From a virus: DNA of 64,000 nt. Under the pieces are notes generated by a model. The model ran no database searches, was not told where the DNA came from, and was given only the letters and a program-made list of their open reading frames with translations. Below, piece after piece: positions 1-44,635 of this stretch (position 1 is its first letter; each line of letters begins with the position of its first letter). The translations under genes were made by a program, and so were the position numbers. The DNA lies in IMG/VR virus record IMGVR_UViG_3300045988_106448. One strand, written 5' to 3'.

Positions 1-2
1 GA

Positions 3-374
3 AATTGTGAAAAGTTTCCTCAAGAATTATTTGAAAATATAGGGGGTTGGATAGTTTTAAAAGATTGTTATGATGTTCACCATATAAATGAAGACAGAAC
101 TGACAATCGGTTAGAAAATCTTGAAATTTTAACTCGAGGTAAACATACTGCAATCCACAATTTAGAAAAGACAATTATAAGAGATGATACTACGGGTAGA
201 ATAATTGGTGTCTTTAAACGAGGTGAATTGCTGGGAAGTCCAGAGGTGGATAATCAGCAGCCAAGCATTAGTAGTAATACTTTTGAAGGTTCAACGACTA
301 ACAGCCGAATCCAAACAGATAATGCTGAGGATAGTAATGCTGACACGAGTGCCTCGCCCCTATTTATAGGGTGA
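3..374 (+). CDS. HNH homing endonuclease, 5'-truncated by the window edge
   Basis: Frame 3 translates to ...WIVLKDCYDVHHINEDRTDNRLENLEILTRGKHTAIHNLEKT..., the classic HNH motif (HH..N..NL..H..H); the ORF runs off the left edge. Confidence 0.7.
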   Translation, partial: NCEKFPQELFENIGGWIVLKDCYDVHHINEDRTDNRLENLEILTRGKHTAIHNLEKTIIRDDTTGRIIGVFKRGELLGSPEVDNQQPSISSNTFEGSTTNSRIQTDNAEDSNADTSASPLFIG

Positions 375-463
375 AGATATAGTCTGAACTTTGCAAATAA
401 CCTAAAAGTAAAGCAAAGAAATAATAGGATAAAGAGCCTATTAGTGTAACAACTCCACATAAA

Positions 464-661
464 TTGGATTACCGTGGAGACGTGGGTGTGCCTCTAATTA
501 ATTTGGGACAGGACGTTGAGAAAATTGAAGATGGCGACCGTGTGGCACAAATTGTTTTCGTGCCATTCGTGCAGGCGAATTTTCAGGTGGTAGCAACCGA
601 AGCTGATCTTGGAGAAACTGAACGTGGTCAAGGAGGATTTGGACATACCGGGAAGAATTGA
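464..661 (+). CDS. dut: dUTPase C-terminal fragment (motifs III-V only), a 3'-exon-like piece
   Basis: LDYRGDVGV (motif III), RVAQIVFVPF (motif IV), RGQGGFGHTG (motif V); TTG-initiated in the ORF track, in-frame stop at 425-427; N-terminal motifs absent from the window. Confidence 0.65.
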   Translation: MDYRGDVGVPLINLGQDVEKIEDGDRVAQIVFVPFVQANFQVVATEADLGETERGQGGFGHTGKN

Positions 662-758: not shown

Positions 759-1463
759 ATGGCAAACGCATTAGCAACTAGAGTAAAATTCCGTAAGTAT
801 TCGGCAGAGCAACTTCAGAACGTTATCAACAATGAGGAATCAAACGAAGTAGAAATTCAGGTAGCGACAGAGTTATTGGAAAAGATGGGTGGAGCACCCG
901 CACCCAAAGAAGCCCCGGTAGCCCCCGCAAAGAAAGAGGCTCCGAAGGTAAAGAAAGCCCCGGCTCCTAAAAAGGAAGAACCGAAAGCTGAGAAAGAAGA
1001 CAAGGCTGAAAAGGAGTTACCCGCTGACAAGTCACCGGAAGCGGCTGCAAAACGTCAGAACAAAAAGACAACGGAATACGTTTCGGATGAACAATTGACT
1101 CCGGCAGAACAAGCCCGCTTAGACAAGGCTGAAAAGGAGTTTGATGAACGCCAGAAAAACCGGAAAACCCCTTCCAAGTCTGACAAAACGATGAAGGAGA
1201 AGGCTCCTAAGACTGAAAGAGCAACCAAGCGTGAAAATCTTGAGGAATCAAACGAAGTACCGGGCTTGAAGGTTGGTAGCCAAGTAACCTTGAAAGAAGG
1301 TTCCGAGGTAGGTACGATTACCCGTGTATATCTATCTTCGGATGGTAAAGAGAAATGTATGGTGAAGTTTGGTGATGCCAAACCAATCAAGAAGCGTGTG
1401 ACGGCTGTGGAACTCGCAGAAGAAGCTAAACCGAAAGCCGCCCCGAAAAAAGCTAAGAAATAG
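759..1463 (+). CDS. Lys/Ala/Pro-rich (histone H1-like low-complexity) protein with a globular C-terminal domain
   Basis: APAPKEAPVAPAKKEAPKVKKAPAPKK repeats; C-terminal GSQVTLKEGSEVGTITRVYLSSDGKEKCMVKFGD looks KOW/SH3-like. Confidence 0.5.
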   Translation: MANALATRVKFRKYSAEQLQNVINNEESNEVEIQVATELLEKMGGAPAPKEAPVAPAKKEAPKVKKAPAPKKEEPKAEKEDKAEKELPADKSPEAAAKRQNKKTTEYVSDEQLTPAEQARLDKAEKEFDERQKNRKTPSKSDKTMKEKAPKTERATKRENLEESNEVPGLKVGSQVTLKEGSEVGTITRVYLSSDGKEKCMVKFGDAKPIKKRVTAVELAEEAKPKAAPKKAKK

Positions 1464-2194
1464 TGAGCCCCACTATATATCTAGTCAAAGGTATTTCAGG
1501 AAGTGGCAAATCAACAAGGGTTTACCTATTCTTGGAATACCTTGAATCATTAGGGCTAGAATTGACACCCTTTAAATTTAAAACACTTGACGGAAAAGAA
1601 AAGGAAGTAGGAGTTTATTGTGAGGATTTGGATTTGATTTTCGTTGGGAAGTGGTACGAAAATGGCGGTGTACGCCGTTGGCAGGGGCACGACAGTATGA
1701 CGGGGCGGTTATGTCATTCTGAAGGGCTTAGCTACTTCCTAAAGAGTGTTGCACAAAAGGGTCACAGTGTTGTTTTGGATGGTGCGGGTACGACGGCAAC
1801 ATGGCGGCTTAGACCCAAATTCCTATTTGAGGACAACGGGTTTAAGAGTATTGTTCATATACGGTATGATTACAAGCCGGAGCAGTTGCAAGAATATTAT
1901 GACCGGATCGAATACCGTTCTGGCGAGCCTCCCAAGGGGGATAGTATGTGGCGTAAAAGTAAAACCTTCCTACATGACTATCAAAAGGCTGTAGAAGAGG
2001 CTAAGATGGTTGTATCGGCAGGTTGCCACGTGTCTTTACATGATGAACCATACGATACCCCGGTTTACGATTTGGGTGTTAGAATTTTGGAGCACGTGGG
2101 TTTGGAAGACGTGCAAGATGAGTTCATCGCTTATTGTCAAAATTCAGATTATCTAATTAAAAACTCCTTTAATGAATTCCAGAAAATAAAATGA
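1463..2194 (+). CDS. P-loop kinase, PNK-like, possibly a nucleotide or DNA-base kinase
   Basis: Walker A IYLVKGISGSGKST at the N-terminus; resembles the T4 polynucleotide kinase N-terminus (GCPGSGKST). Confidence 0.5.
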   Translation: MSPTIYLVKGISGSGKSTRVYLFLEYLESLGLELTPFKFKTLDGKEKEVGVYCEDLDLIFVGKWYENGGVRRWQGHDSMTGRLCHSEGLSYFLKSVAQKGHSVVLDGAGTTATWRLRPKFLFEDNGFKSIVHIRYDYKPEQLQEYYDRIEYRSGEPPKGDSMWRKSKTFLHDYQKAVEEAKMVVSAGCHVSLHDEPYDTPVYDLGVRILEHVGLEDVQDEFIAYCQNSDYLIKNSFNEFQKIK

Positions 2195-2979
2195 AATTTC
2201 GAGGGCGTATATATTGTATAGAATGTACTGTAAATCATAAGTGGTATATTGGTCAAACTTCTAGAAGTTTACAAGTTCGGATGAATGGGCATATCAAGTT
2301 AGCTCTGAGGGGAGGGGAATTTGCTTTAAGTCGTGCTATACGAAAATACGGCGTTGAAAACTTTGTAATCGAGGAAATCATGTGGGTTGAGGCTCCTAAT
2401 AAACATTCTCTAAAACAGAAACTCGATTTTCTGGAACGCCATTTTATAGCCCGTTACGACACGAAACATACGGGCTATAATATGACGGAAGGAGGAGAAG
2501 GTGTATTAGGAATTCAATTTGATGAAGAGTCTAGAATAAAAATGTCTGAATCTGCTAAAAATAGATGCGATGAAAATTTTAGAAGAAGACAATCTATTGT
2601 TGCTAAACGTTTATGGCAAAAGGAATCTTTTCAAAAGTTAAGGTCAGAAGCCGCCCATTTGAATTTATTAAATAAAGAAGTTCAGAAAAAGATGGGTTTG
2701 GCTCGCCGAGGATTAAAGTTTACTGAAGAGCATAAGAAGAAAATAGGTTTAGCCGTAAGCGGGGAAAGGAATGGTATGTATGGGAAAAGCCACCCAAAAG
2801 AATTTATTGAAAAATTTACTAAGAAAGTTTATCAATATACTCCAGAGGGGGTTTTAGTGAAAGAATGGTTTTCTATTATTGATATTAAAAGAGAATTGAA
2901 AATAGGCAGAAAATGTTTAAAGAAAGCTATTGCAAATCAATTTATTTATCATGGTTATATTTGGAAATTTAAAAGATGA
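2191..2979 (+). CDS. GIY-YIG homing endonuclease with NUMOD-like DNA-binding repeats
   Basis: IYCIECTVNHKWYIGQTSRSLQVRMNGH...YNMTEGGEG (GIY-YIG, R, E); repeated ...KMSESAKNR... and ...KKKIGLAVSGERNGMYGKSH... modules. Confidence 0.8.
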   Translation: MKFRGRIYCIECTVNHKWYIGQTSRSLQVRMNGHIKLALRGGEFALSRAIRKYGVENFVIEEIMWVEAPNKHSLKQKLDFLERHFIARYDTKHTGYNMTEGGEGVLGIQFDEESRIKMSESAKNRCDENFRRRQSIVAKRLWQKESFQKLRSEAAHLNLLNKEVQKKMGLARRGLKFTEEHKKKIGLAVSGERNGMYGKSHPKEFIEKFTKKVYQYTPEGVLVKEWFSIIDIKRELKIGRKCLKKAIANQFIYHGYIWKFKR

Positions 2980-3974
2980 AAAAGAATAAAATTATTCCAG
3001 TCCCTAACGAAAATTTTCAATATTATTTGTATTGGATTACTAAAAGAATGGAAATTTTTTGGAACAAATACGAGGGTAAACCCGCCCCATGGACGGACGA
3101 TCCTATATTACAAAAATATAAATTTTGTAATACGTACAGGTGCCTCGACAGAGTTAGTCAGTACCTGTTGAGCCACGTGATTTACAACGGTAAGGATTAC
3201 GAACCGGAAGATATGTTTTACCGCATATTGTTGTTCAAACATTTTAACAAGATAGAAACATGGGAAGCGATTGAAAAAGAATTAGGGGATATTACCCTTA
3301 ATGTGGAATTAGAAGACATTGCCAAATGTCTTGATGATATGGTAAAACGAGGCATTACCATTTATGGAAGTGCTTATATTATTAATTGTTGTTTCTACCA
3401 ATTACCGGAGTATTCCTACATGAAGGGGATGTCTAAACACCGGGCACACTTTAGCGTGTTTCAACGTGAAATTTTTGACAACGGGCATATTTATGACTTC
3501 CTAGACGCACAGTCATTAGAGGAGTTGTTTTGGGTATTCCGTAAGATGAAAATATACGGGGACTTTACGGCACAACAATACGCCATTGACATGAATTACA
3601 GCCCTCTGTTTGACTTTAACGAAAATGATTTTGTTATAACCGGACCGGGTTCAATTCGAGGAATTGAGAGGACTTTTCAGAATGCCCGTGGGTGTGATTA
3701 CGTGGGTGTGATGAAATGGGTTCTTGCCCATTTTACGGAGTTGATGTATGAACAAGAAAAGGAGAAAGGTTTCACATTTCGTCCACTTCCTAATCGTATG
3801 CCCACGTTGATAGACTTGCAAAATTGCTTCTGTGAAACGGATAAATATTTGCGGGGTGCCGGGGTTGAAACAGAAGGATTAAAAGTGAAAGGCGAGCGGA
3901 TTAAACACACTTACGAGGCGAACCGTAATAAAATTAAATACACGTTGCCACCTAAGTGGAATGTGAAACTTTAA
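2976..3974 (+). CDS. Conserved hypothetical protein, candidate nucleotide/DNA-modification enzyme
   Basis: 332 aa, aromatic-rich (FWNKYEGKPAPWTDDPIL, KFCNTYRCLDR); no motif I can assign; sits between a kinase and a TS-family hydroxymethylase. Confidence 0.35.
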   Translation: MKKNKIIPVPNENFQYYLYWITKRMEIFWNKYEGKPAPWTDDPILQKYKFCNTYRCLDRVSQYLLSHVIYNGKDYEPEDMFYRILLFKHFNKIETWEAIEKELGDITLNVELEDIAKCLDDMVKRGITIYGSAYIINCCFYQLPEYSYMKGMSKHRAHFSVFQREIFDNGHIYDFLDAQSLEELFWVFRKMKIYGDFTAQQYAIDMNYSPLFDFNENDFVITGPGSIRGIERTFQNARGCDYVGVMKWVLAHFTELMYEQEKEKGFTFRPLPNRMPTLIDLQNCFCETDKYLRGAGVETEGLKVKGERIKHTYEANRNKIKYTLPPKWNVKL

Positions 3975-5041
3975 TTTCAAGAACCATGTTTTTACAAGCT
4001 GAAAATTTAAACGAGGCATTTATTTGCCTTTGTCAAGAACTATTTTATCACGGCGAAGACGTGACCCGGCGTGGCTTTAAATGCCGGGAAATTCCTCGAG
4101 CGGTGTTAGTGGAAATTACCAATCCAGTAGACCGTTATGTGCGTGTGCCAGAGCGCAAATGGAATAAGGTGTTGGGGTGGGTTGAATCCCTATGGATCGC
4201 TCGTGGGGATAATGCTTTAGAAATGCCTGCTGCCTATGTTAAGAACCTGAAGAATTTCAGTGATGACGGCATACACATGAGAGCCGGGTACGGTCCGAGA
4301 TTCAGACATTATGGGGATAACGGGGAATTTAAACCATTGTTTAATCTTCCTATTTCAACAGGATTTCCCGTTGACCAACTTAGATTTGTCATTGAAAAAT
4401 TTAAGGAGGACATTGACACACGGGAAGCGGTGGTTACTATTCATGACCCTGTAATGGACGATTTCGGTCCCGTAGATAACAGTGGGGTGGCTCCTGTTTT
4501 ACGAACAAAGGACACTCCATGCACCCGGTCAATTCATTTCATGATTGTGAACGGTGCGATGAATTGCTACGTTGACATTCGGAGTAATGATGTTGTATGG
4601 GGCTTTAGTGCCGTGAACGTGTTTAACTTTACGTTAATGCAGGAATACGTCGCCGCTCTGGTAGGCGTGCCCGTGGGTAAGTATTACCACAAGGCTGATA
4701 ACTTGCACGTGTATGAAAACTTCTTACCGTTGGTGGAGGAGATTGCCAAGAAGTACACGGGTAACGAATACCCTTCTGGAACCCGGTTCGCTTACAAACC
4801 CTCCTACAAAACTCTTCAAGAGTTTGATGCTTACATAGGTAAACTCAGCACCTTCGAAGAATTGTGTAGAGGGAAGAAAGTTCCGGCAGAAGAATTGGAA
4901 GTGATACTTAGAACCTTTACCGATGACTTATTTAACGATTGGGCTAAAGTGTTCTTCACCTACTGGACTAAACACCCGGTAGAGTTTACCAATCCGTTGT
5001 TAAACGAAATATTTTGTTTTGATGAATTACGAGAAAATTGA
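3956..5041 (+). CDS. Thymidylate-synthase-fold deoxypyrimidylate hydroxymethylase (dUMP/dCMP hydroxymethylase family)
   Basis: Catalytic-Cys context PCTRSIHFMIVNG; DIRSNDVVWGF matches T4 dCMP hydroxymethylase NMRSNDVVFGF rather than ThyA RSCDVFLGLPFN; GWVESLWIARGDN is the TS-fold helix. Confidence 0.7.
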   Translation: MECETLISRTMFLQAENLNEAFICLCQELFYHGEDVTRRGFKCREIPRAVLVEITNPVDRYVRVPERKWNKVLGWVESLWIARGDNALEMPAAYVKNLKNFSDDGIHMRAGYGPRFRHYGDNGEFKPLFNLPISTGFPVDQLRFVIEKFKEDIDTREAVVTIHDPVMDDFGPVDNSGVAPVLRTKDTPCTRSIHFMIVNGAMNCYVDIRSNDVVWGFSAVNVFNFTLMQEYVAALVGVPVGKYYHKADNLHVYENFLPLVEEIAKKYTGNEYPSGTRFAYKPSYKTLQEFDAYIGKLSTFEELCRGKKVPAEELEVILRTFTDDLFNDWAKVFFTYWTKHPVEFTNPLLNEIFCFDELREN

Positions 5042-5561
5042 CATCCTATTAGGGATGAAGGATATCCAAAGGCTACCAAATACCCCCCACCACCGGGGGT
5101 ATAACCTTTTGGAACATGGTTTGGTAGTTGGAATGTTATTCCGGTGGTTCGCTTCAGAAGAGAACGTGGCGTACGACATTAACGTGTTTGACAAGGTTCT
5201 CCTACATGATTTCGTTGAAAGCGTCACGGGGGATTTAAACGCTTGTGTTAAGAAGTTTAACGATAAGACAGCCAAGGCGTGGGACATTATTGAATTTGAA
5301 ATATGCCACGGCAACCCGGTACTCGCCCCCTATTCTGATCAGGAAATAAAGAAAGCCATGACGGATCAGCAATATCGTCTATTTAAAATGTGCGATTATC
5401 TTGATTTGTGGATTTTCTGCCGGAACGAAATGGCGTTGGGAAACCGAGCGCAAAAGTTGGTTAAATGTTTGTCTAACTGCGAAAAGCTATTGGCTCACTA
5501 TTCTCATGAATGGGCTGAGTTTAAAAGCATCGCTAAATTCATGAAACAATATGAAGGGTAA
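5019..5561 (+). CDS. HD-domain 5'-deoxynucleotidase (YfbR-like)
   Basis: NLLEHGLVVG ... VLLHDFVESVTGDL (H...HD...D motif of HD phosphohydrolases). Confidence 0.6.
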   Translation: MMNYEKIDILLGMKDIQRLPNTPHHRGYNLLEHGLVVGMLFRWFASEENVAYDINVFDKVLLHDFVESVTGDLNACVKKFNDKTAKAWDIIEFEICHGNPVLAPYSDQEIKKAMTDQQYRLFKMCDYLDLWIFCRNEMALGNRAQKLVKCLSNCEKLLAHYSHEWAEFKSIAKFMKQYEG

Positions 5562-6231: not shown

Positions 6232-9200
6232 GAGAAATTTAATGGATTATACCCTGATATCAGATTACGTTGTTGATATCGGGGGTAAGACATTCGAGTT
6301 ATACAAGCCCGCTCATGATGGAGCGTTATTCGATGACGACTTTAATTTCGTGGGGATTCCCGCTAATCCTGACCGGGCTTCGGTAGAGGAATCGTCTACG
6401 GAAACTGAATGTGATTTTTACGCTTACCGTTTCGGTGGGGTGTGGTATATGCTACCACGAGGAAAAGAGAACGAGGTAAAATTGATTCGGTTAAAATACG
6501 TGGGTGCGGCACTTCAGGAAGTTCCTACACGGGTATTTCTGGGGGTGCATGGTCAGTACGAAATGATGTCCGGGTCAGGCACGTATAAAGAATGGTGCCA
6601 GAAGGCGAAGTTTTTAGGGGTTCACACGTTAGGTATCTGTGAGAAAAACAGTTTAGCCGGGGCGTTAAAATTCCAAACGGAATGTATCGCTGCCGGGTTA
6701 AAGAGCGTGATTGGAATGGAGTGCAGCGTGTATGATGAACCAAACGATTATGCTTTCACGGCTAAGGTGTACGCTCGCAATGAAAAGGGATGGAAGGACT
6801 TGTTGACAATAAACAAGTTTATAAATTGTGACAATCCTAAATATATAGGAGTTGCCGACTTTCGGAATATTACTCGTGGCAATAATGATCTTGTGGTATT
6901 TTTAGACCCCAAGGCGTTGGACTATGACAAGATTGGAATGTTGGGTATTGCGGGGATTACCAATTTATACCAATTAGACCCGGCTATATACACCGCCGAA
7001 AAGCGTGACGAGTGGTACTTGAAGAATCTTAAAAAGTTCTTTCATGACAAGTCGCTGACAGCCGTGGCGGCTATTGATGCGTGGTATTTGGATGAAGAAT
7101 ACAGTTGTATTCGACCTCGGTTACACAGCATGGGGAACACGATAGCCTATGCAAGTGAGAATCAGTATTTCAAATCAAACGATGAATACTTGTTAGAATT
7201 GTCAGAGTTATTCCCTAAAACTGATGAAGGGTTCGAAATGGCGTATAACAAATTCATGGATGCGATAGACGTGTTGGAAAACGTTGCCGAGGCGATTACC
7301 TTTACCATAGACGTCAAGAAACGCCACTTACCCCACTACAAAATGACAAAGGAGGAGGCGGCAGAGTTTGACAACAATGAGGATCTCTTTTGGTCTCTTA
7401 TAGACAAGGGGCTTGAGGCTCATCCTGACTTAATTGAGGATTGGGGTGAAGAGGTTATTATGGAGCGTATTGAGAGGGAAGTGGGGGTTATAAAGCTAGG
7501 TGAAGCGATTGATTACTTTTTAATCACGTGGGACATTATCAATTGGTGCCACCGTAACGGTATCATGACGGGGATTAGTCGTGGGAGTGCCGGAGGTTGT
7601 TTGGTATCATATCTGTTGGGTATTACCAAACTTGATCCCATGCGGTATGACTTACTGTTCGAGCGTTTCTTGAATGCGGGTCGTGTGAAGGTTTCCCTAC
7701 CTGATATTGACTGTGATTACCCCGGTGAAGACCGTCCTCGTGTAAAGAAGTACATGGAGGAACGTTACGGGTGGAAACAGGTGTGTTCGGTAGGAACGTA
7801 CAGTGCTCTACAATTACGTGCGGCTCTTAAAGCCTTGTCACGGGTGTACGGTTTGCAATTCAAGGACGTTAACGACATGATGAAGTTGTTTGACGTGAAA
7901 GACCGTAAGCCGGAAGACCTGTTTAAGATAGCGTGTGCCCACCCCGTTGTTAAACACTTTGTCAAGGAACACCCGGATTTGATTAACGAAGCGATGCTCG
8001 TGATGCCCGCACCGTTGGCGCAGTCTATTCATGCTTGCGCCATGATGGTATTCCCAGATGAAAACGATATGTTTAGATGGGTGCCTATTCGTAAACAGGG
8101 GGACGAGTACGTTACCGAATGGGAAGGTGGTGAGATGGATGCAGCCGGGTTCTTGAAAGAAGACGTGCTAGGGGTGAAACAGTTTGACAAGTTTCAGGAC
8201 ATGGTACGTTTGATTAAAGAACATGAAGGTGTAGACCTTGATATTTTTAGCGTGCCGTTGGATGACCCTGAAGTGTACGCCTATTTCCAAAATGGGTGGA
8301 ATGAAGATAACTTCCACTTCGGCAGTAACGGGCTAACCGGGTATTGCAAGCAAATGAAGCCTGAAAATATAGAGGACTTGATTGCGGCTATATCCCTGTA
8401 CCGCCCCGGTGCGATGGAGAACAACTTCCATAATGAATACGTGTTGCGTAAGGAGGGCACTAACAAGGTAGAGTATTTCGTTGGTACGAAAGATATTCTT
8501 AAGAATACGTATGGAGTGTTCGCTTATCAGGAACAGATCATGCAGTTATGCCGAGAGTTAGGAGGGTTGTCATTGGTGGAAGCAGATGACGTGCGTAAAG
8601 CGATGGTGAAGAAGAAGTACGAGGCGTTACAGCAATACAAGGAAAGATTTATTCCCTATTACCGGGATAACTACGGCGTTAGCCAAGAATACAGCGAGAA
8701 GGTGTGGGATGCCATTGACAAGGCTTCAACGTACTTGTTTAACCGTAGCCACGCCGCCGCCTATGCCATTACCGGATACATTTCCCAATGGATTAAGGTG
8801 CATTATCCGATAGAGTATTGGTCGGTAGCGTTTAAATACGCCCAAGACTTTGATTACCCCCGGTACATTGCGGAAATTAATAAGACGGGGGTCTGCACGG
8901 TGCGTCCTGTGGATATTAACTTGTCGGCGTTGGATGTTACCATTAACTTTAAAGAAAAGGCTCTGTATTGGTCTATAACCGGAATAAAACAAGTAGCGGA
9001 AAAAGCCGCAACCCAAATTTTAAAAGAGCGTGAAGAGAATGGTGATTACTATTCGTTGGATGATTTCGTGGTTCGGCATAAATGGAAGGGTTCGGCGGTT
9101 AATAGCCGTATCATACGAAACCTAATTTTAGCGGGGGCGTTTGACAAGTTGGAAAACGTGCAGGAACCTTCAGATCGTATTGATTTGTTGATTAATTTCT

Positions 9201-26933: not shown

Positions 26934-28547
26934 ATGGACATTAAAGTATTATTTGACGATTCAGCCCGTGAAGGCTTGTATGAAGGGGTGAAACAAATTA
27001 CCCGTGCCGTGGCTTCTACACTCGGACCGAAAGGACACACGGTTATCATTGATAAAGGTTATGGCATTCCCCACGTGACCAAAGACGGGGTAACGGTGGC
27101 TCGTGCCTTTGATACGGATGACACCGTGGCTCGCATGGGTGCAACCCTCGTTAAGATGGCAGCCGCTAAAACGTGTGACGAAGCCGGAGACGGTACCACT
27201 ACCGCCACCATTCTTACGGAAGCTCTCATACGGTTAGGGATGGAAAAGATGCACCTCGTGAAAAATCCACAACAATTTAAACGAGGAATTGAACGTGCTT
27301 GTGAAGAGGCGGTAGCCTTCATTGACAATTTGAAATATGAAATCGATCCTACGGATTTTACCCGGTTAGAACAAATTGCTACCATTTCAGCGAATGGAGA
27401 CGTGGAGATAGGAAAGGTAATTACCGGGGCTATTCAACAAGTGGGCAACGATGGGATCATCACCGTGGAAGAAGGTGATAACTCTTCTGAGATAACGGTT
27501 GATATCACGACAGGATTCCAATGGTCAAAGGGGCTTGTCAATCCCTATTTCGTAACCGATCGAGAACGTATTGAATGCGTGTTAGACAATCCATACGTTC
27601 TAATACTAGGGCAGAAAGCCAATTACCCGCAAGAAATTCTTCCGGTGGTTCAAACCGTGTACACCGCTAAACGTAGTTTACTTATTGTCGCTCCAGACGC
27701 CTCTAACGACGTCATAAAGTTCCTCGTAACGAACATTGCCAAGGAAAACGGGTTAAAGGCTTGCTTCGTTAAAGCCCCCGGCTATGGACAGGTTCAGAAG
27801 GATATGTTGGAAGACCTAGCCGTGAAGATGGGCGGTAAGGTGGTTGGAGGGGAATCCGCTCAAACCATTGAACAACTAGGTACAGATTGGTTAGGTGAAT
27901 GTGATAGAGCGGTTGTCACCTCTACTCAAACCACCCTAGTTGGAGGGGCGGGTACCGAAGAGGAAATTCAAACCCGTGTCAAGGCTATCAAGAACCAGAT
28001 TGATGACACCTCTAACACCTTTGATAAAGAGAAGTACCGTGAACGCATTAGCAAGTTAACCGGGGGAGCCGCCGTGATACACGTTGGAGCCACTAGCGAG
28101 GTTGAGATGAAGGAACGCAAAGACCGAGTAGACGATGCCATAGCCGCCACACGTGCAGCCATTGACGAGGGCTACGTGCCGGGTGGAGGTATGATGCCAT
28201 ATCAGGCAGCACAATATCTAACGGGTTGGACAACCAATACCACGGAGGATGAACGTGTGGGAATTGAAGTGGTAATCGGGGCTTTACGTGCACCTTTCCG
28301 TCAATTGTGCATGAATGCCGGGGTAAACCCTGATAAATACGAAGCGGTAATAGAAACCAAAATCGGAAGTGAGTGGCGCAAGGGGATTGACTTTTCTTCC
28401 ATGTGCATCGTGAATTTGTTTGAGATTGGGGTAATTGACCCCGTTAAGGTTACACGCCTTGCGTTGCAGAACGCCGTGAGCGTTGCCATACAGTTCCTAA
28501 ATACTTCGTGTGTTATGGCTGAGCCGCCTAAAGACAAGAAGTCATGA
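26934..28547 (+). CDS. groEL: GroEL/Hsp60 chaperonin
   Basis: AREGLYEGVKQITRAVASTLGPKGHTVII..., GDGTTTATILTEAL; full-length 537 aa. Confidence 0.9.
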   Translation: MDIKVLFDDSAREGLYEGVKQITRAVASTLGPKGHTVIIDKGYGIPHVTKDGVTVARAFDTDDTVARMGATLVKMAAAKTCDEAGDGTTTATILTEALIRLGMEKMHLVKNPQQFKRGIERACEEAVAFIDNLKYEIDPTDFTRLEQIATISANGDVEIGKVITGAIQQVGNDGIITVEEGDNSSEITVDITTGFQWSKGLVNPYFVTDRERIECVLDNPYVLILGQKANYPQEILPVVQTVYTAKRSLLIVAPDASNDVIKFLVTNIAKENGLKACFVKAPGYGQVQKDMLEDLAVKMGGKVVGGESAQTIEQLGTDWLGECDRAVVTSTQTTLVGGAGTEEEIQTRVKAIKNQIDDTSNTFDKEKYRERISKLTGGAAVIHVGATSEVEMKERKDRVDDAIAATRAAIDEGYVPGGGMMPYQAAQYLTGWTTNTTEDERVGIEVVIGALRAPFRQLCMNAGVNPDKYEAVIETKIGSEWRKGIDFSSMCIVNLFEIGVIDPVKVTRLALQNAVSVAIQFLNTSCVMAEPPKDKKS

Positions 28548-31282: not shown

Positions 31283-31308
31283 AGGGGGCGAAAGCCCCCT
31301 CTTTTGTT
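31283..31308. terminator. bidirectional rho-independent terminator between convergent genes
   Basis: agggggc-gaaa-gccccct then cttttgtt. Confidence 0.7.
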
Positions 31309-31870
31309 AGTTGCCCGCCGGGGTAACGTTGTAGGAACGATTCATCCACGCTTCTTTTTCCATGGATTCTATCATGTCTTCCAGAAAATTCAGGGTAGCC
31401 AAATCATTTTCAGGAATCTGAGCGTGAATATCACGAATAACACGCACCATTCTGTCCCAGTCATCCCTAATGTGTTTCCACATATCAATTTCCTGTGGAA
31501 CGGCTTCCGTCATGGAAAATTCTGGAATATGGTTATGGCTTAACATGGCTTCCATACTTCCTAACGGGCGGTGACCCAAAGCCCGTACACGTTCAGCCAC
31601 GTCGTCAACTCGTTCGATTTCCGCCTCGTATAACTTTAACATGGCTTCATGATATGAACCAAATGATTCTCCTACCACGTTCCAATGGAACTGCCACGTC
31701 TTGAGCATCAAGGTAAAATGGTCAGCGAGTAAACCATTCAATAATTTAGCACTCCTTTCAAGTTCTTCAGGAGTTAATCCGGTATTAATACTCATAATTA
31801 AAATGATTAGATTGTTTATAAACAAATAATATACGGTAATGACAAAATAAAGTTTGTAACCTTGTAACAA
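31307..31870 (-). CDS. Dps/ferritin-like DNA-protection protein
   Basis: LNGLLADHFTLMLKTWQFHWNVVGESFGSYHEAMLKLYEAEIERVDDVAERVRALGHRP matches Dps ferroxidase-site helices. Confidence 0.7.
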   Translation of the reverse strand: MLQGYKLYFVITVYYLFINNLIILIMSINTGLTPEELERSAKLLNGLLADHFTLMLKTWQFHWNVVGESFGSYHEAMLKLYEAEIERVDDVAERVRALGHRPLGSMEAMLSHNHIPEFSMTEAVPQEIDMWKHIRDDWDRMVRVIRDIHAQIPENDLATLNFLEDMIESMEKEAWMNRSYNVTPAGN

Positions 31871-31937
31871 AATATTTTCACCCCACGTATTAGTATTGTG
31901 TTTATCACATAATAGTTTTAGGGTTTATTGTTTGTCA

Positions 31938-31967
31938 TGGATGAGCCAATCGGCTCATCCTCTTTTT
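31938..31967 (+). terminator. hairpin plus T-run terminator/insulator between the Dps gene and the next + gene
   Basis: ggatgagcc-aatc-ggctcatcc then tctttttg. Confidence 0.55.
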
Positions 31968-32014
31968 GAATAATAAAATATCCGCAATATCTTGCACACC
32001 TAAAATATTTACCC

Positions 32015-32022
32015 TATATTTG
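32015..32022 (+). promoter_or_regulatory. -7 box TATATTTG
   Basis: 28 nt upstream of the ATG at 32050. Confidence 0.45.
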
Positions 32023-32049
32023 CATTACAAACTAATAAACAATAAAACA

Positions 32050-32535
32050 ATGAAAACTCCAGAACAAATTATCGTAAATGTAACTGATAAAACACAGTGG
32101 ACGTTAACACGTATTAATTCCATTCCTACAATGGAATGCTCGATTAAGGTACCGTATAATAACACTGAATATACTATATTCAGTACAAGTGAACAAATTC
32201 ATGATTGCCAGATAGCCTATACGGGACGTTCTTTGATTGAGAGGGGTTGGGAAATTTCAGTCACCCTTTATCATCCCCATGCGGCGGGGCGTTACCGGGT
32301 TTTATTTATCGTACAGCGTCCAAACGGTAAAGAATGTTCTCAATATGGTTTACTTGTAGATTACGATGGGCGTTGTCCGCTTATACTCACGGGTGTAAAT
32401 TTGGTTACAGGGAAGAAAGTGGGCGGACCTCAAGCGGTGAACATGGCCATTACTATGGAAGCGTTATTTAGCGAATTATTTTGTAAACCTAGGAGAAACG
32501 GACTAACTATCCTCCCTAATCCACGTATGCTATAA
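32050..32535 (+). CDS. hypothetical protein
   Basis: Start placed at the internal Met downstream of the promoter box. Confidence 0.4.
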   Translation: MKTPEQIIVNVTDKTQWTLTRINSIPTMECSIKVPYNNTEYTIFSTSEQIHDCQIAYTGRSLIERGWEISVTLYHPHAAGRYRVLFIVQRPNGKECSQYGLLVDYDGRCPLILTGVNLVTGKKVGGPQAVNMAITMEALFSELFCKPRRNGLTILPNPRML

Positions 32536-32568
32536 CACAGTTAAACAATATATAAGAAATCCAGAATT

Positions 32569-32919
32569 ATGTTAGACTTAAAGATTTTTGCTCAAGAAGA
32601 GATTGAAGACCTAGTGAAAGGAGATATCGTTTGTTATCCGGAAGCGATGCAATTTATAATGACCCGGTTAGAGTGTACGGAAGAGGAGTTGAGGGTGGTT
32701 AAGCCTCAACACAAGCCCACCACGCCAACAGACATCGAAGCGTGGTTCCCTAACGAACCCGATGAACCCCTAATGATTTGGGAAGTACCCGGTTATGACG
32801 CTGAATTAATAGAGATACATTACCGGGGTGTGAGCCTGATTGGCTTGCGTGACGAGTGTCCCTACATGGTTTATATGAACGTAAAAGATTTGCAACATGA
32901 GAAACAAAATGTAGCGTGA
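32569..32919 (+). CDS. hypothetical protein
   Basis: ORF only. Confidence 0.4.
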   Translation: MLDLKIFAQEEIEDLVKGDIVCYPEAMQFIMTRLECTEEELRVVKPQHKPTTPTDIEAWFPNEPDEPLMIWEVPGYDAELIEIHYRGVSLIGLRDECPYMVYMNVKDLQHEKQNVA

Positions 32920-32955
32920 AGTTTGTAGTTTTCATATAGTTTATAGTTTAGTGAA

Positions 32956-32990
32956 GCGTGCCGGGTGAATAACATTCGGCACGCATTTTT
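32956..32990 (+). terminator. rho-independent terminator
   Basis: gcgtgccg-(13 nt)-cggcacgc then attttt. Confidence 0.6.
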
Positions 32991-33024
32991 ACGGATGTTT
33001 CCTTGTGGTTTTAAATATAATGCT

Positions 33025-33032
33025 TACATTTG
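33025..33032 (+). promoter_or_regulatory. -7 box TACATTTG
   Basis: 25 nt upstream of the ATG at 33057. Confidence 0.45.
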
Positions 33033-33056
33033 CATAAACAATAAAAACTAAACAAG

Positions 33057-33344
33057 ATGGAAACACAGAACGAACACTTACAAGAATTTAAATTTAGTAC
33101 CGGGGTAAAACCCTACATTCACACCCCGCAGGCTCCAATCTCCAATCCGTATGAATACGTGGATGGTAACGGCGTGAAAATAATTCTATTTTATTGTACT
33201 GACGTGCCGGAAGGCGCAACCTTCTTATTCGCTAGTAGCAACCCCAATTGTCCAGAAGGCGAAGCTAACAACGTTATTGTTAGAAGAATTATAAAGGGTG
33301 GATTGGCGAGTGAATACGCCTATTTCAGAATAAACAAACAATGA
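33057..33344 (+). CDS. hypothetical protein
   Basis: ORF only. Confidence 0.35.
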   Translation: METQNEHLQEFKFSTGVKPYIHTPQAPISNPYEYVDGNGVKIILFYCTDVPEGATFLFASSNPNCPEGEANNVIVRRIIKGGLASEYAYFRINKQ

Positions 33345-33350
33345 ATTCCT

Positions 33351-33953
33351 ATGGCAACACAAGATAAAGCTATCTTATTGAAGATAAAGAAAGTGAAAGC
33401 CCTAGCGGAACAGGGCGTGAGCGGTGAAAAGGAAGCCGCCCAACAACTTTTAGAGAGGTTATGCGCCCGGTACGGCATCACCCTAGAAGAGTTAAACGAA
33501 GGTGAAGCCCGTCGGGTATATCATTTCCACGTTCGTACTTCCGTTTACAAATTATTCTTACAAGTGTTCACTCACCTGTACGGGGTTGGTGACAGATTTC
33601 GTAACGAAGTAAAGGTGTACCAAGCAAAGAACGGTCGTGACATTCAGGTGTCGTTCACTCCTACCGAATACATAGAATTTAATATCTTCTTCGAATGGCA
33701 CAGGCAAAACTATCTGAAGGAACGCCGCCGAATGCGTGAAATATTTTACAGTGGGTATCTTGAAAAACATAAACTCTACCCGTGTAAAACTGATGAGGAT
33801 TTCGATAAAATGTGGGAAGAAAAGAAGAGTAAGAAAGATTTATGGGAAGAAATGATGGCGGTGAGTGCCATGACTAAAATGATGACGGATGCCACGTTCC
33901 ACAAGCAAATAGGAAGCGAAGAAAATTCTTACGGGGAAGATGACGAAGATTAA
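33351..33953 (+). CDS. hypothetical protein
   Basis: ORF only. Confidence 0.4.
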   Translation: MATQDKAILLKIKKVKALAEQGVSGEKEAAQQLLERLCARYGITLEELNEGEARRVYHFHVRTSVYKLFLQVFTHLYGVGDRFRNEVKVYQAKNGRDIQVSFTPTEYIEFNIFFEWHRQNYLKERRRMREIFYSGYLEKHKLYPCKTDEDFDKMWEEKKSKKDLWEEMMAVSAMTKMMTDATFHKQIGSEENSYGEDDED

Positions 33954-33987
33954 TCCCTATTTTCTTTGCCGTTTACAAAGTAAACAC

Positions 33988-33995
33988 TACATTTG
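33988..33995 (+). promoter_or_regulatory. -7 box TACATTTG
   Basis: Upstream of the ATG at 34028. Confidence 0.45.
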
Positions 33996-34027
33996 TAGCA
34001 GTAATAAACACTAAAACAGTAAACATT

Positions 34028-34282
34028 ATGACAACAATTCAAGATTTATTAAGTATTTGGGATGATAATTCTGAAGCCATAGAACAAATACAAGAATGTT
34101 TATGGGAAGCCGAAGACATTATTAATGAAAAATACGGTTCGGATGTGGAGGTTGAGGTTGAAGAAGTAGACGAAGGTGAATATGAAATCGTAATTGAGGG
34201 CTGTACAGCAGAAATCCAAGAAGAACTTCTTGAAGAAGCCACGAATTACGCTTCAGAAAATTATCCTGAATTATTCTTCTAA
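34028..34282 (+). CDS. small highly acidic protein (candidate sigma-factor partner)
   Basis: 84 aa rich in E/D (EEVDEGEYEIVIEGCTAEIQEELLEEAT); stop lies 2 nt before the sigma-factor ATG. Confidence 0.4.
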   Translation: MTTIQDLLSIWDDNSEAIEQIQECLWEAEDIINEKYGSDVEVEVEEVDEGEYEIVIEGCTAEIQEELLEEATNYASENYPELFF

Positions 34283-34284
34283 TT

Positions 34285-34890
34285 ATGGATGCTAAAGAGG
34301 TGGATGCTGCCCTAGTAAAAGAGGCACTCGATGGGAGCCAAAAGGCATACGAAAAACTATTCAATAAATACCGCTATTCCTTGCGGTATTCAATTTTACA
34401 AATTGTGAGGGATGAGGAAACCGCCAACGATTTACTCATGGAATCTTTTAGTAGAGCCTTTCTAAACCTGAAACGTTACACTACGGATTTCGCCTTTAGT
34501 ACATGGTTATTCCGCATAGGGGTAAACTGTGCGATAGATTATAAACGCAAGCACGGGCGGGTAGTGATGTGCCGTATAGAACAGGACGATCCCGATAGGG
34601 AAGACCGCCCGATGTTCGTTATTCCTGACCCTGACCGTACCCCGGCGGATGCTGCCATACAAAGACAACGTGTCGATTTAGTGCGAGGCGTTATCGCACA
34701 ATTGCCGGAACCTTTCTACACTATGGTTCACCTACGGTACATAGACGGGTTTGCCTATGATGAGATAGCCGATGAGTTAGACGTGCCGTTAGGCACCGTT
34801 AAAGCCTCGCTACACAGGGCGAAACAATTGTTGTGGGAACGCCTCGCTGAAGACAAAAGGTATAAGGAGATACTAACCGAGGAGATATAA
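34285..34890 (+). CDS. ECF-type sigma-70 family sigma factor
   Basis: Region 2 YRYSLRYSILQIVRDEETANDLLMESF...FSTWLFRIGVNCAIDYKR; region 4 HTH YDEIADELDVPLGTVKASLHRAKQLL. Confidence 0.75.
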   Translation: MDAKEVDAALVKEALDGSQKAYEKLFNKYRYSLRYSILQIVRDEETANDLLMESFSRAFLNLKRYTTDFAFSTWLFRIGVNCAIDYKRKHGRVVMCRIEQDDPDREDRPMFVIPDPDRTPADAAIQRQRVDLVRGVIAQLPEPFYTMVHLRYIDGFAYDEIADELDVPLGTVKASLHRAKQLLWERLAEDKRYKEILTEEI

Positions 34891-34938
34891 GTGCGTATAT
34901 ACATGGCATAGTAATTAACAATTAAATATAATAGAATT

Positions 34939-35364
34939 ATGACAGAAACAATTTTATTGACCATTTTAGGCACGTTGCTCGTGTTATGGGTAACGTTACA
35001 CGTGTACCAAAGGCGTAAACGTTTAAACTTTAGGAAACGTTTTCTTGAAGCCATTACTGACATGATGGCGTTCCCTACCAAGGAAATAGCCGTGTGCGGG
35101 CAGAAATACCTCGTGTCATTCGTGTGCCCGCCCAATCCGGATGCTTATAATGTGTTTACTGATTCTTCTTTAAAAGAATATCAAGAAGAGATAGATGAAG
35201 ATAAAAACGACTACACGTGGGGAGTGTTCTGCGGGGCTGACATGGCTGCAATAGAAACATTCATAAGTTACAATCCAGACGTTACCGTGTTAAACATACC
35301 GACGGAGCAAATGAAAGTGAATTTCCCCAAGAGAGCGATGTACAAGGTAGTGAAAATTAAATAA
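34939..35364 (+). CDS. N-terminally membrane-anchored protein (candidate anti-sigma or regulator)
   Basis: TM segment ILLTILGTLLVLWVTLHVY directly downstream of the sigma factor. Confidence 0.35.
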   Translation: MTETILLTILGTLLVLWVTLHVYQRRKRLNFRKRFLEAITDMMAFPTKEIAVCGQKYLVSFVCPPNPDAYNVFTDSSLKEYQEEIDEDKNDYTWGVFCGADMAAIETFISYNPDVTVLNIPTEQMKVNFPKRAMYKVVKIK

Positions 35365-35371
35365 CGAGGGG

Positions 35372-35695
35372 ATGAATACCGTGGCGAAAGAACAAACCAA
35401 ATTCGTGATGAGCAAAATGCAAATCCCAATACCTTCAGTGATAGAAGAATTAATTAGAAAACGTTACGCCGATTCCCCCGTGTTACACGTGGGTGTAACC
35501 ATACAACGGGACGCCATTAGCCGGGATGGCGTGCCCGCATTGTACACCGTTAGTGACGTTGACCCGCTCCTATTGTTGGAGGAAATAAGGGACATTATTA
35601 ACAATAAACGCCTCGATTTAGCCGACAAAATTATGGACGTGCACAAGGTATTACAGAAAATAGAAAAGACGCATGAAGCAAGTAAAGGTTATTAG
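35372..35695 (+). CDS. hypothetical protein
   Basis: ORF only. Confidence 0.35.
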   Translation: MNTVAKEQTKFVMSKMQIPIPSVIEELIRKRYADSPVLHVGVTIQRDAISRDGVPALYTVSDVDPLLLLEEIRDIINNKRLDLADKIMDVHKVLQKIEKTHEASKGY

Positions 35696-36047
35696 TATTG
35701 GTAGTTCTCCAAATTATGAACAGGTGAACCACATACAAGAGTTGCTAAACACGGGATGGGAAATACAGGCTTGTACTAGCACGTATATTTTACTCATCTT
35801 AGAATCCACAGATCGAGTTCAAGAACTAGAACCTACCACTTTCAAAGAACGGTTGCAGATAGAGGAACAGGAGCTAAACATCAAGCTAACAAAACTCACA
35901 CGGTTTCTAGACAAAACGTTCCTAACCGAGGACACGAAATTAGACCCTACACAGCTTGAATTAATGGTTGCTCAACAGCAACACATGGAACAATACCTAA
36001 CAATATTGCACGAAAGAATGAAACTATTGGGCATCCCCACCGTATAA
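35673..36047 (+). CDS. hypothetical protein
   Basis: ORF only. Confidence 0.35.
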   Translation: MKQVKVISIGSSPNYEQVNHIQELLNTGWEIQACTSTYILLILESTDRVQELEPTTFKERLQIEEQELNIKLTKLTRFLDKTFLTEDTKLDPTQLELMVAQQQHMEQYLTILHERMKLLGIPTV

Positions 36048-36089
36048 TTCCGTACTGTTTTCATATTTATTAGATAATTAATATTTCTT

Positions 36090-36117
36090 GCCGCTCCCAT
36101 GTCGGGGGCGGTTTTAT
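36090..36117 (+). terminator. hairpin plus T-run terminator
   Basis: ccgctccc-atgtc-gggggcgg then ttttatt. Confidence 0.45.
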
Positions 36118-36308
36118 TATGGTTGCCATTTTGGCGACCGGAAATAAGGCGTTTTAAGGGATTATTACGCCGTGGTAATACCCCAACATTACCACATATT
36201 ACAGTACCTTAAACGGGCTAACAATCGGTAAACAAAACGGGGATGTTATATTGGGGAAGGGAAATAGAGGTTGCGGCGGTTGCACCATACCACTACCAAC
36301 AACAAAAA

Positions 36309-36330
36309 CACCGGGGTATATACCCCGGTG
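36309..36330. terminator. perfect palindrome hairpin, likely the terminator for the minus-strand gene that ends at 36389
   Basis: caccggggtata|taccccggtg; on the minus strand it is followed by tttttgttgttgg. Confidence 0.5.
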
Positions 36331-36388
36331 CAAACACTATGTAAAACAAACCAAACAATAAATTCCTATTTTAGTGACCAGAAATAGA

Positions 36389-36691
36389 TTATTTAACCAC
36401 TTCCATTTCTTTATTAAATTCAAAATTACTGATTACTTGCCATTTTAGCAAATTGTTTGAATGCACTTCAACCATTAACCAATCACCCACGAATATATCG
36501 TATTCATCTTTATTTATATCCGTTAAAACTAAATCGGGGTTGGGAAAATGGGGGTCACAGTCTATTTCTACCGTGGTAAAGTTGGGTTCAAAATTCTTTA
36601 CCCATTCTTGCAGTTCTTCAAGGTTCTTTCCGTCGTACTGTATGGCGTACATTGTAACGGGGTTTTTCGGTTTTACTTGTAATAGTTTCAT
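36389..36691 (-). CDS. hypothetical protein
   Basis: ORF; a TACATTTG box lies on the minus strand at 36754-36761. Confidence 0.35.
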   Translation of the reverse strand: MKLLQVKPKNPVTMYAIQYDGKNLEELQEWVKNFEPNFTTVEIDCDPHFPNPDLVLTDINKDEYDIFVGDWLMVEVHSNNLLKWQVISNFEFNKEMEVVK

Positions 36692-36782
36692 GGTTTCGTA
36701 TTTTAGGGATGGGAAATTGTAACTTTTAGCCCGTGCACAACGTTACACGGGTACAAATGTAGTAACTAAACAAGGTAACAAT

Positions 36783-37022
36783 ATGTTATGTAGAGCAATT
36801 TTAAGCGTGCCTAACAGCCCCGCAAACCGGATTAGGCTAAGTATGTTACAAAACACGGGAACGATTGAACCCCCCGTTTTACACGCCGACGGGAACACTT
36901 ACACGGTAGTAACCACCACCGCCAACGTGCCGGACGGCGTGCGTGCCCGTGCCAAATGGTTACGGGAACTAAGCCTGTACGGGGCTAAAGTGGTAGACCA
37001 CATGAGCCCTAAACACGGGTAA
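36783..37022 (+). CDS. hypothetical small protein
   Basis: ORF only. Confidence 0.3.
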   Translation: MLCRAILSVPNSPANRIRLSMLQNTGTIEPPVLHADGNTYTVVTTTANVPDGVRARAKWLRELSLYGAKVVDHMSPKHG

Positions 37023-37075
37023 AGGGTGCGTTATACAGCGCACCCGGTTTGTATCATGGAGAACCGAAATAGGGG

Positions 37076-37363
37076 TTATAACAGGTTTGTTGCGGCGTAA
37101 TAATGTGGGTACCTTCCTAATTGCGTGTTGCAATTGTAGCTCGTGAATGCGTTCACCATGCTATCAAACGGCACGTTATCGCATTCCTTTGCATTCGTCG
37201 TGTACAATAAACCCCACGGAGTATTTATGTTCATTCGGCACGGTAACAAGTGTATTTCATGCCCGGCGTTGTACAACCGTTTTGCAACGGTTTTGTTCAC
37301 TTGCTTTACCTGTACTTTCTTGCCGTACACGGTAACGGTTAAGATTTGGTTCTTGTGTAACAT
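37076..37363 (-). CDS. hypothetical protein
   Basis: ORF only. Confidence 0.3.
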   Translation of the reverse strand: MLHKNQILTVTVYGKKVQVKQVNKTVAKRLYNAGHEIHLLPCRMNINTPWGLLYTTNAKECDNVPFDSMVNAFTSYNCNTQLGRYPHYYAATNLL

Positions 37364-37399
37364 GGCTTTTGTATTTTGGGTGTGGGAAATAGGGTTAAT

Positions 37400-37951
37400 T
37401 TACAGGTTACAACCGGGCACGTAGGTACGCAAACGGTAACTATATCGTTTTCTAAAGTTGCTTATTTCGGCTTGCAATTTGGCGGCGGCTTGCCGTACTT
37501 CGTCATATTGGCGCATATCCCGCCGCACTTCGTCAACCTTGTCTAATAGTTGTAATTGCGTGGTGGTAATGTTTTCCACGGTTGCGGGGGCGTTTACACG
37601 TTGCGTGTCCTTATCTATGGCTATAATGGCTTTTGCCGTGTCGTCAGTAACGTACCCCGTTGTGTAGTAACCGTTGCGGTCGGGGCTGCTAGCACGGTAG
37701 GCACGGTTTTCGCCGTCATAAACTGTAAGCGCAACGCCGTTATAATTACCCCAATCTAATCGTACTATTATATTTTGGGTGGGATGCACACGCTTTATCT
37801 CGCCATCTATGGCTTTCAGCAAACGTGCGTTTAATACCTTGCCGTTAAAACTTGCTTTTATTTCCTGTTTGGCAACGTTTAATATTTCAACTTGTGTTTC
37901 GTAAACCTTTATTTGTGCGGCGCACATTGCGCAAAATACCGTGTAATTCAT
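37400..37951 (-). CDS. hypothetical protein
   Basis: ORF only. Confidence 0.4.
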   Translation of the reverse strand: MNYTVFCAMCAAQIKVYETQVEILNVAKQEIKASFNGKVLNARLLKAIDGEIKRVHPTQNIIVRLDWGNYNGVALTVYDGENRAYRASSPDRNGYYTTGYVTDDTAKAIIAIDKDTQRVNAPATVENITTTQLQLLDKVDEVRRDMRQYDEVRQAAAKLQAEISNFRKRYSYRLRTYVPGCNL

Positions 37952-38000
37952 AATTGCTTGTTTTTAGAGGTTAAACATTGGATTTGCCGTGTGCAGGCGG

Positions 38001-38639: not shown

Positions 38640-38768
38640 AATGTTTAGTTTTTAATTGTTTATTGTTTGTTTTGGGTGGGGGCTTTGTGCCCCCTGTTTG
38701 TTATTACAAATGTACAACTTTTATTTGTATCTGCAATGAAATTTAAGATATTTTCTTAATAATTTCGG

Positions 38769-39356: not shown

Positions 39357-39479
39357 TTTATTTAAGTTTTAAAGGTTATTACTGTTTGTTACCGGGGCTA
39401 GCCCCGTTGTGTTATTTGCATATACAAATATAATACAATTATTTGGTACTACAATAAGTTAGCACAATTAATTCAACTT

Positions 39480-41388: not shown

Positions 41389-41469
41389 TTGCAACTCTCC
41401 ACGTCGACACGGCGTATAGGGGTTGTATTTAATCGCCTGTTGGCACTAACACTTAAAACGAGAAAGATT

Positions 41470-42365: not shown

Positions 42366-42366
42366 T

Positions 42367-42755: not shown

Positions 42756-42776
42756 TAACAAGAAAAAGGAAAAATA

Positions 42777-43016: not shown

Positions 43017-43028
43017 TAAATAAAGATT

Positions 43029-43452: not shown

Positions 43453-43458
43453 TGAATT

Positions 43459-43665: not shown

Positions 43666-43723
43666 TTATTGAACCAGAATTTTAGGATGTTTCCTTGGGA
43701 TTCCTATTTTTACCGCTAACTTT

Positions 43724-44627: not shown

Positions 44628-44635
44628 CATGAATT

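Follow-up and report, generated by a model that had tools for sequence, protein, structure and literature searches.

Near the left end of the 64-kb stretch of phage DNA analysed here (hereafter the window), the 3' part of a dUTPase gene (dut) lies beside part of an HNH endonuclease gene. Such an arrangement raises the question whether dut is interrupted by an intron or has been broken by the endonuclease gene. The first-pass annotation, made from the letters of the window, proposed a group I intron carrying an HNH endonuclease, with the 5' exon of dut lying to the left of the window, and named disruption of the gene by an endonuclease insertion as the alternative. Both gene pieces were recovered by translation and Pfam searches where it had placed them, and the coding features it described are real, far beyond chance. 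The match of the intervening sequence to an Rfam family, its covarying helices and the existence of intron-less alleles with exactly the predicted junction make it very probable that the locus is an otherwise intact trimeric-type dUTPase gene interrupted by a group I intron which carries an HNH homing endonuclease.

Exons, splice sites and the spliced dUTPase

Within the window, the dUTPase profile matched nucleotides 428-658 over Pfam positions 70-129 of 129 (E 6.2e-12), and thus covers only the C-terminal part of the protein. The frame of this piece has stop codons at 422-427 and a TTG at 464; the stretch 375-463 is without an ORF. The TTG had been taken as a start codon, but the intron ends with G466 and the exon starts only at 467. 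Likewise, dUTPase motifs III to V had been assigned to the piece. Motifs IV (RVAQIVF) and V (RGQGGFGHTG) are complete; of motif III only the second half (DYRGD) is present, since the intron splits this motif.

The 5' part of the gene was located on the 112.5-kb contig k115_60666 (ENA ERZ27334113; hereafter L003), the longest of five contigs found by looking up a neighbouring 243-aa protein. Positions 1-200 and 401-700 of the window are identical to L003 at an offset of +8538. An exact 50-mer search of IMG/VR returned 0 matches. On L003, a 91-aa ORF with a dUTPase domain (PF00692) extends from 7880 to 8155, and the gene order is dUTPase exon 1, HNH ORF, exon 2. Exon 1 comprises 85 codons and ends 403 nt left of the window; within it, motifs I (AGADL) and II (PRSG) are followed by the opening half of motif III (GVIDA), so that the 5' exon lies where it had been expected. 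The intron occupies L003 8135-9004 (870 nt). It is preceded by U and its last base, at window 466, is the G expected of a group I intron; all 11 homologous introns (11/11) end in G.

Joining L003 7880-8134 to 9005-9199 yields a 149-aa dUTPase with all five motifs (AGADL, PRSG, GVIDADYRGD, RVAQIVF and RGQGGFGHTG) that scores 97.7 bits against PF00692 over positions 4-129 of 129. Its residues 86-149 correspond to window 467-658 (tblastn), and the intron falls between codons 85 and 86, inside motif III (GVIDA|DYRGD). A scan of IMG/VR with the spliced protein retrieved 45 uninterrupted dut genes. Two of them, on contigs L008 and L009, encode a Dut with 97% amino acid identity, and their genomes are colinear with L003 over 6447 nt without gaps at 98.1% identity. 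In both, dut is a contiguous gene of 447 nt in which the site reads GACGCT|GATTA, exactly the predicted ligated junction; no alternative splice register reproduces this sequence. The intron-less alleles thus fix the splice sites unambiguously, after U and after G. A second dut gene was not found in the 72.5 kb examined (the 64-kb window and 8.5 kb upstream) of the 112.5-kb contig.

Structure and covariation of the ribozyme

The group I model of Rfam (RF00028) matched window 167-408 over model positions 1-253 of 253 with 58.7 bits and an E value of 1.2e-13, above the gathering score of 50, and was the sole gathering-level Rfam hit in the 64-kb window. The score is only modestly over the threshold, and the general model is a weak judge either way. 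It missed the dut intron of p-crAssphage (L001) and those of L062 and L063 even at E <= 1e-3; these introns are clear homologues of the one in the window, with every helix intact. The general Rfam model is thus insensitive to the dut-intron family.

The helices and splice-site guides are listed in Table 1. P7.1 and P7.1a form a two-segment helix between P7 and P3', and the J8/7 sequence, AAGAUAUAGUC, is the exact Rfam consensus. The stretch of roughly 90 nt between the two coding regions, previously described as a non-coding gap, turned out to be the 3' third of the ribozyme (P7', P9 and P9.1).

Table 1 Features of the dut locus and of related introns (positions refer to the window unless a locus is named)
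Feature	Position	Strand	Evidence or remark
3' 466 nt of the 870-nt intron	1..466	+	L003 match, RF00028, intron-less alleles; intron start 403 nt left of window
HNH endonuclease, C-terminal part	3..374	+	123 codons and TGA stop; frame 3, no internal stop
HNH catalytic motif DVHHINEDRTDNRLENLEILTRGKHTAIH	72..158	+	DVHH..N...DN...NL......H...H; Pfam match at fragment residues 23-48
Guide sequence P10' (UAAUU)	202-206	+	pairs with first 5 nt of exon 2
Guide sequence P1' (GGUGUCU)	207-213	+	pairs with last 7 nt of exon 1, AGACGCU; U.G at splice site
Catalytic core	219..384	+	P3-P8, including P3/P7 pseudoknot
P3	219-223/352-356	+	Rfam alignment, covariation
P4	229-234/254-259	+	Rfam alignment; invariant in 9 sequences
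P5	239-242/247-250	+	Rfam alignment, covariation
P6	261-262/288-289	+	Rfam alignment; invariant in 9 sequences
P6a, GUAA loop	270-273/278-281	+	Rfam alignment, covariation
P7	296-300/380-384	+	Rfam alignment; invariant in 9 sequences
P7.1	302-305/339-342	+	Rfam alignment, covariation
P7.1a	309-312/329-332	+	Rfam alignment
P8	358-362/367-371	+	hairpin in every homologue, sequence differs each time
J8/7	372-379	+	Rfam alignment
Peripheral 3' helices P9, P9.1	389..442	+	pair counts (P9.1), hairpin check (P9)
P9	389-394/413-418	+	hairpin in every homologue
P9.1, conserved loop AUAAAGAG	423-428/437-442	+	compensatory change in 4/6 pairs
Terminal G (omega-G)	466..466	+	3' splice site between 466 and 467; intron-less alleles
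dUTPase exon 2	467..661	+	64 codons (467-658) and TGA stop (659-661)
Intron in AAA/P-loop ATPase gene	L064 1721-2762		LAGLIDADG ORF
Intron in DnaB-like helicase gene	L065 1730-2784		GIY-YIG ORF
Intron in another DnaB-like gene	L066 1721-2740		LAGLIDADG ORF
9-mer TTATATTTG	L001 2295-2303; L056 2460-2468; L058 2271-2279
9-mer TTATATTTG	L062 2339-2347; L065 1707-1715; L066 1742-1750

Covariation was assessed in an alignment of nine distinct homologues, in which each sequence combined the exon ends with the last 270 nt of the intron. Over 52 pairs in 12 helices, 98.9% of the positions are paired, and compensatory changes occur in 20 of the 52 pairs. Sliding the partners by 1-3 columns left 28-47% paired (at most 46.9%). 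None of 500 shuffles equalled the observed percentage of pairing or the covariation score; the nine sequences are related, which inflates these shuffle statistics, an effect offset by the slid controls and by the guide tests in other genes described below. P8 and P9 were left out of the pair count and checked sequence by sequence, since their covariation is so strong that MAFFT misaligned the columns.

P1 is 100% paired in the nine sequences, with compensatory changes in three of its seven pairs and a splice-site U.G invariant in 9/9. The exon/guide variants are AGACGCU/GGUGUCU, UGACGCU/GGCGUCA, AGACUAU/GUAGUCU, AGACUUU/GAAGUCU and CGACGCU/GGUGUCG. P10 (5 bp) is 93% paired and has one covarying pair. 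A guide sequence was searched for in the first 80 nt of the intron and none was found there. Instead, it lies downstream of the HNH ORF, whose 3' end runs on into the ribozyme; the ORF is therefore placed in the P1 loop, and the P1 pairing must span ~600 nt. No account of the structure of this ribozyme, or of its guide following the ORF, was found in the literature that we searched. As a candidate for P1, a 12-bp pairing of exon 1 with intron sequence was considered and rejected; its z value is +0.9 in the window's intron, and it is absent in crAssphage. In L056, positions 2399-2410 pair perfectly over 12 bp with 2438-2449 (exon 1 -15 to -4 with intron 25-36; duplex z -5.6), a pairing that would compete with P1 and is weaker in L054 and L057.

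No P2 helix could be placed, as there are just 5 nt between P1' and P3 (UUAAA, window 214-218). Rfam draws a P2 at 171-193, which was discarded for its mismatches and its position upstream of the guide sequence. Most group I introns have a P2, yet it is not a universal defining feature, so the assignment to group I stands despite its lack. The 870-nt intron is probably self-splicing.

The intron-encoded HNH endonuclease

The whole HNH ORF encodes 232 aa, from an ATG at L003 8214, chosen as the one aligned with the starts of the homologues, to 8912. Its 123-aa portion within the window matched Pfam HNH_3 (PF13392) with 32.8 bits (E 5.5e-08), and the full protein did so with 31.5 bits (E 1.3e-07), both over the cut-off of 24.8; HNH endonuclease families of PHROG matched the full protein with E values down to 4.7e-12. 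Residues H135, H136, N144, N148, H157 and H161 are invariant in eight homologues. A CxxC...CSxxC zinc finger precedes the HNH motif and is likewise invariant in the eight homologues, which are 46-78% identical to this protein. Searches of the PDB sequences with the protein and with its profile returned nothing significant.

Left out of the first-pass annotation was the overlap of this ORF with the ribozyme. It extends over 173 nt (P10', P1' and P3-P8), and the UGA stop lies in J8/7 (window 372-374). Among homologues the overlap ranges from 128 to 191 nt, with the stop codon at three different places. Translation through the ribozyme core could hinder its folding. Overlap of an endonuclease ORF with a ribozyme is known as 'core creep', and the tabulated cases range from 0 to 81 nt (Edgell et al. 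2011, PMC3073962).

Host phage and neighbouring genes

The DnaE-type polymerase encoded in the window has its nearest relatives in Tenacibaculum, Cellulophaga and Chryseobacterium phages (36-39% identity), and the nearest cultured relatives of the terminase are those of the Bacteroides phages DAC19-23 and SJC03 (36.6%). Given these relatives, the host phage of the intron is not crAss-like; it probably infects Bacteroidota.

Several other features of the genome deserve mention. The large terminase (L003 2686-4785, about 4-6 kb left of the window) contains a Hom_end_hint domain, i.e. an intein; the terminases of the Bacteroides DAC phages align with it in two pieces, consistent with their having no intein. 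A free-standing GIY-YIG/NUMOD3 homing endonuclease gene (window 2191-2979) overlaps each of its neighbours by 4 nt. These encode the 5-hmdU DNA kinase domains HMUD2 (1463-2194) and HMUDK_hel (2976-3974), and the endonuclease gene might have split one kinase system or have been inserted between its parts. A cluster directly downstream of dut, at window 1463-5041 and about 5020-5560, comprises a 5-hmdU DNA kinase P-loop domain, a kinase helical domain, a YfbR-like nucleotidase and a thymidylate-synthase-family protein that may be a dUMP hydroxymethylase. This composition suggests a thymidine hypermodification pathway beside dut. dUTPase supplies dUMP; if the cluster has this function, the pathway depends on correct splicing of the intron.

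A phage-encoded GroEL-like chaperonin is present at window 26934-28547 (PHROG 5725, E 4e-141). Over about 20 kb (window 31300-51200), no ORF of at least 250 aa occurs on either strand, and the region is apparently made up of small genes. Stop-codon recoding was considered for 31-51 kb and dismissed, for reading TAG or TGA as sense adds just one ORF of at least 300 aa. No tRNA genes were found in the window.

Distribution and probable mobility of the intron

The intron is present in five contigs and missing from two near-identical ones, whose genomes are ~98% identical. Between L003 and the intron-less L009, 122 differences were counted over 6447 nt, 19 of which fall in the 100-nt bin at the junction (other bins, 0-8); 20 codons of dut differ, 16 of them synonymously. 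Thirteen of the 53 differences between L008 and L009, both intron-less, also lie at the junction spot. Judged from these sequences, the clustering fits co-conversion of exon flanks during homing, escape from cleavage, or both. In L063 most of the ORF is deleted, leaving an intron derivative of 356 nt, in keeping with the usual gain-and-loss cycle.

A search with the HNH protein yielded 14 related loci in IMG/VR, and blastn relatives of the intron were p-crAssphage, CrAssphage LMMB, cr50_1 and cr1_1. In every locus bearing the HNH ORF, dUTPase homology breaks at residue 85|86. The same dut codon is interrupted in at least eight other phage lineages, with Dut proteins 24-67% identical. Since the host phage is not crAss-like, we infer a spread across phage lineages; the intron has probably moved between unrelated phages that share Bacteroidota hosts, recognising the conserved DNA that encodes motif III.

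Proposed mechanism and alternative readings

By its predicted structure, the intron would follow the standard group I splicing pathway. The end of exon 1 (AGACGCU) and the guide GGUGUCU would form P1 with the U.G wobble at the cleavage site, and an external guanosine held in P7 would attack 3' of the splice-site U. Guide bases 202-206 would hold exon 2 via P10, and the freed 3'-OH of exon 1 would then attack after G466, so that the exons are ligated to a dut mRNA of 149 codons; without splicing, only the 91-aa Dut stub could be made. The P1 loop (~600 nt) carries the 232-aa HNH gene, the product of which is predicted to cut or nick intron-less dut alleles in a mixed infection. Repair from the intron-bearing copy would spread the intron together with short flanking stretches of the exons. 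We infer the activity of the endonuclease and its target from sequence.

Could dut instead be dead, its pieces the decaying remnants of a gene into which an endonuclease cassette was inserted? Gene callers do report the locus as three separate ORFs, and exon 1, read past the junction, meets a stop 21 nt into the intron. However, neither exon is damaged, and ligating them in frame yields a full-length Pfam dUTPase with five motifs. Between them lies a group I ribozyme whose helices covary and whose splice sites have the canonical U and G, the arrangement is kept with intact exons in many lineages, and the 72.5 kb examined yielded no replacement dut. Such a disruption, the alternative of the first-pass annotation, is very improbable. 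Hardly credible, and the least probable of the readings, is a Dut made as two polypeptides that assemble after translation without RNA splicing. Two ORFs with dUTPase domains flanking an endonuclease gene do resemble the splits caused by free-standing endonucleases, but here the coding sequence is broken within motif III, and a credible start is missing from exon 2, as the TTG overlaps the terminal G and the homologues have no start codon there. Moreover, the pieces are separated by a complete ribozyme, the guide of which fits both exons.

A reading closer to the favoured one is that the intron splices but is immobile, the HNH protein being nuclease-inactive or kept for another role such as help in RNA folding. 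The nuclease activity is deduced from sequence, the ORF shares 173 nt with the ribozyme core, its loss is possible, as the ORF-less derivative shows, and the HNH protein has no solved relative detectable by sequence. Against this stand the HNH residues and zinc finger, invariant in eight homologues, the polymorphic presence of the intron among genomes that are 98% identical, and the clustering of exon differences around the junction, which recent homing or cleavage escape would produce. In addition, between lineages the HNH protein (45% aa identity) and the core (76-85% nt) are far better conserved than Dut (24-29% aa). We consider an immobile intron unlikely, and retain the intact dut gene with a mobile, endonuclease-carrying group I intron as the preferred interpretation.

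Related introns in other host genes

The same ribozyme core was detected in three further host genes (nhmmer E 1e-37 to 1e-54; Table 1). In each of these introns the guide at the equivalent position fits the end of its own exon in 7/7 positions, again with a U.G pair. Joining the exons restores a Walker A motif in L065 (GASSKV|GKT) and a DnaB-like motif in L066 (PYQD|ADVVLGL). In all four combinations of endonuclease and host gene (4/4), which involve three endonuclease families, the ORF occupies the P1-loop slot and runs in frame through guide and core. The encoded proteins have a common C-terminal peptide, K(R/Q)GELL..NQQPS.SSN..EGSTTNS.IQTDNAEDSNADTSA (..GELL..NQQPS.SSN..EGSTTNS.IQTDNAEDSN..TS). 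It is conceivable, albeit rather unlikely, that the intron is part of a modular 'chassis' of gut Bacteroidota phages whose ribozyme-encoded tail is a functional protein module rather than passive 'core creep'. Such a module may serve, for example, in binding of the intron RNA or in coupling translation to splicing.

In most family members, irrespective of endonuclease and host gene, the 9-mer TTATATTTG is located 2-45 nt upstream of the endonuclease ATG. The version in the window's intron, at L003 8186-8193 to the left of the window, is TAACTTTG. The 9-mer fits TAnnTTTG, the -7 promoter consensus of Bacteroides, which suggests that the endonuclease may have its own promoter. The generic TAnnTTTG is not enriched in the window (79 matches versus 66.6 +/- 7.4 expected).

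Comparison with known systems

An intron in dut has already been annotated in crAss-like phages, and the present locus is a well-documented, ordinary case of it. In p-crAssphage (Carjivirus communis, BK010471), gp34 is labelled 'Dut dUTPase, contains intron insertion' and gp35 'intron-encoded HNH endonuclease', and the split dut gene was described by Rossi et al. 2020 (PMC7551546). CrAssphage LMMB, cr50_1 (Cohcovirus) and cr1_1 (Culoivirus) carry the same annotation. The two introns interrupt the same gene at the same site, after the codon following the motif III Asp (GTLDY|GYRGE in p-crAssphage, GVIDA|DYRGD here). Their ribozymes are homologous, with a core identity of 76-85% at the nucleotide level and the same helices, their HNH proteins share 45% of the amino acids, and in both the ORF sits in the P1 loop and is read through the core. 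In contrast, the host phage described here is not crAss-like and has a DnaE-type polymerase, and the Dut proteins are only 24-29% identical. The guide is GGUGUCU here and GUAGUCU in p-crAssphage, with compensating changes. The HNH protein has one N-terminal zinc finger, whereas gp35 has two, and the ORF, which in p-crAssphage ends after P7', stops in J8/7 here. The interruption of the same motif III codon in crAss-like phages and in one unrelated lineage provides a clean example of a homing element that tracks a conserved protein-coding site through phage families of a common host niche. The splitting of dut into three ORFs by gene callers, together with the failure of Rfam to detect close homologues, means that this intron family is under-annotated. 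The understanding of group I introns as such is unchanged by the dut case.

The phage T4 td intron with its endonuclease I-TevI similarly is a group I intron in a conserved gene of nucleotide metabolism, with the 3' end of the homing endonuclease gene overlapping the core (PMC3073962). Both have an extra helix between P7 and P3'. Unlike in td, there is no P2 helix in the dut intron; moreover, in td the GIY-YIG enzyme I-TevI is encoded in the P6 loop with a core overlap of 20 nt, whereas here an HNH enzyme is encoded in the P1 loop and the overlap is 173 nt (PMC3073962). An ORF in P1, as in our case, is found in the introns of the Synechocystis tRNA-fMet gene (I-Ssp6803I) and of Physarum PpLSU3 (I-PpoI) (PMC3073962, Table 1). 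These introns belong to other host genes and carry other endonuclease families, and their overlaps, listed as 61 nt and 0 nt (PMC3073962), contrast with the 128-191 nt of the present intron family.
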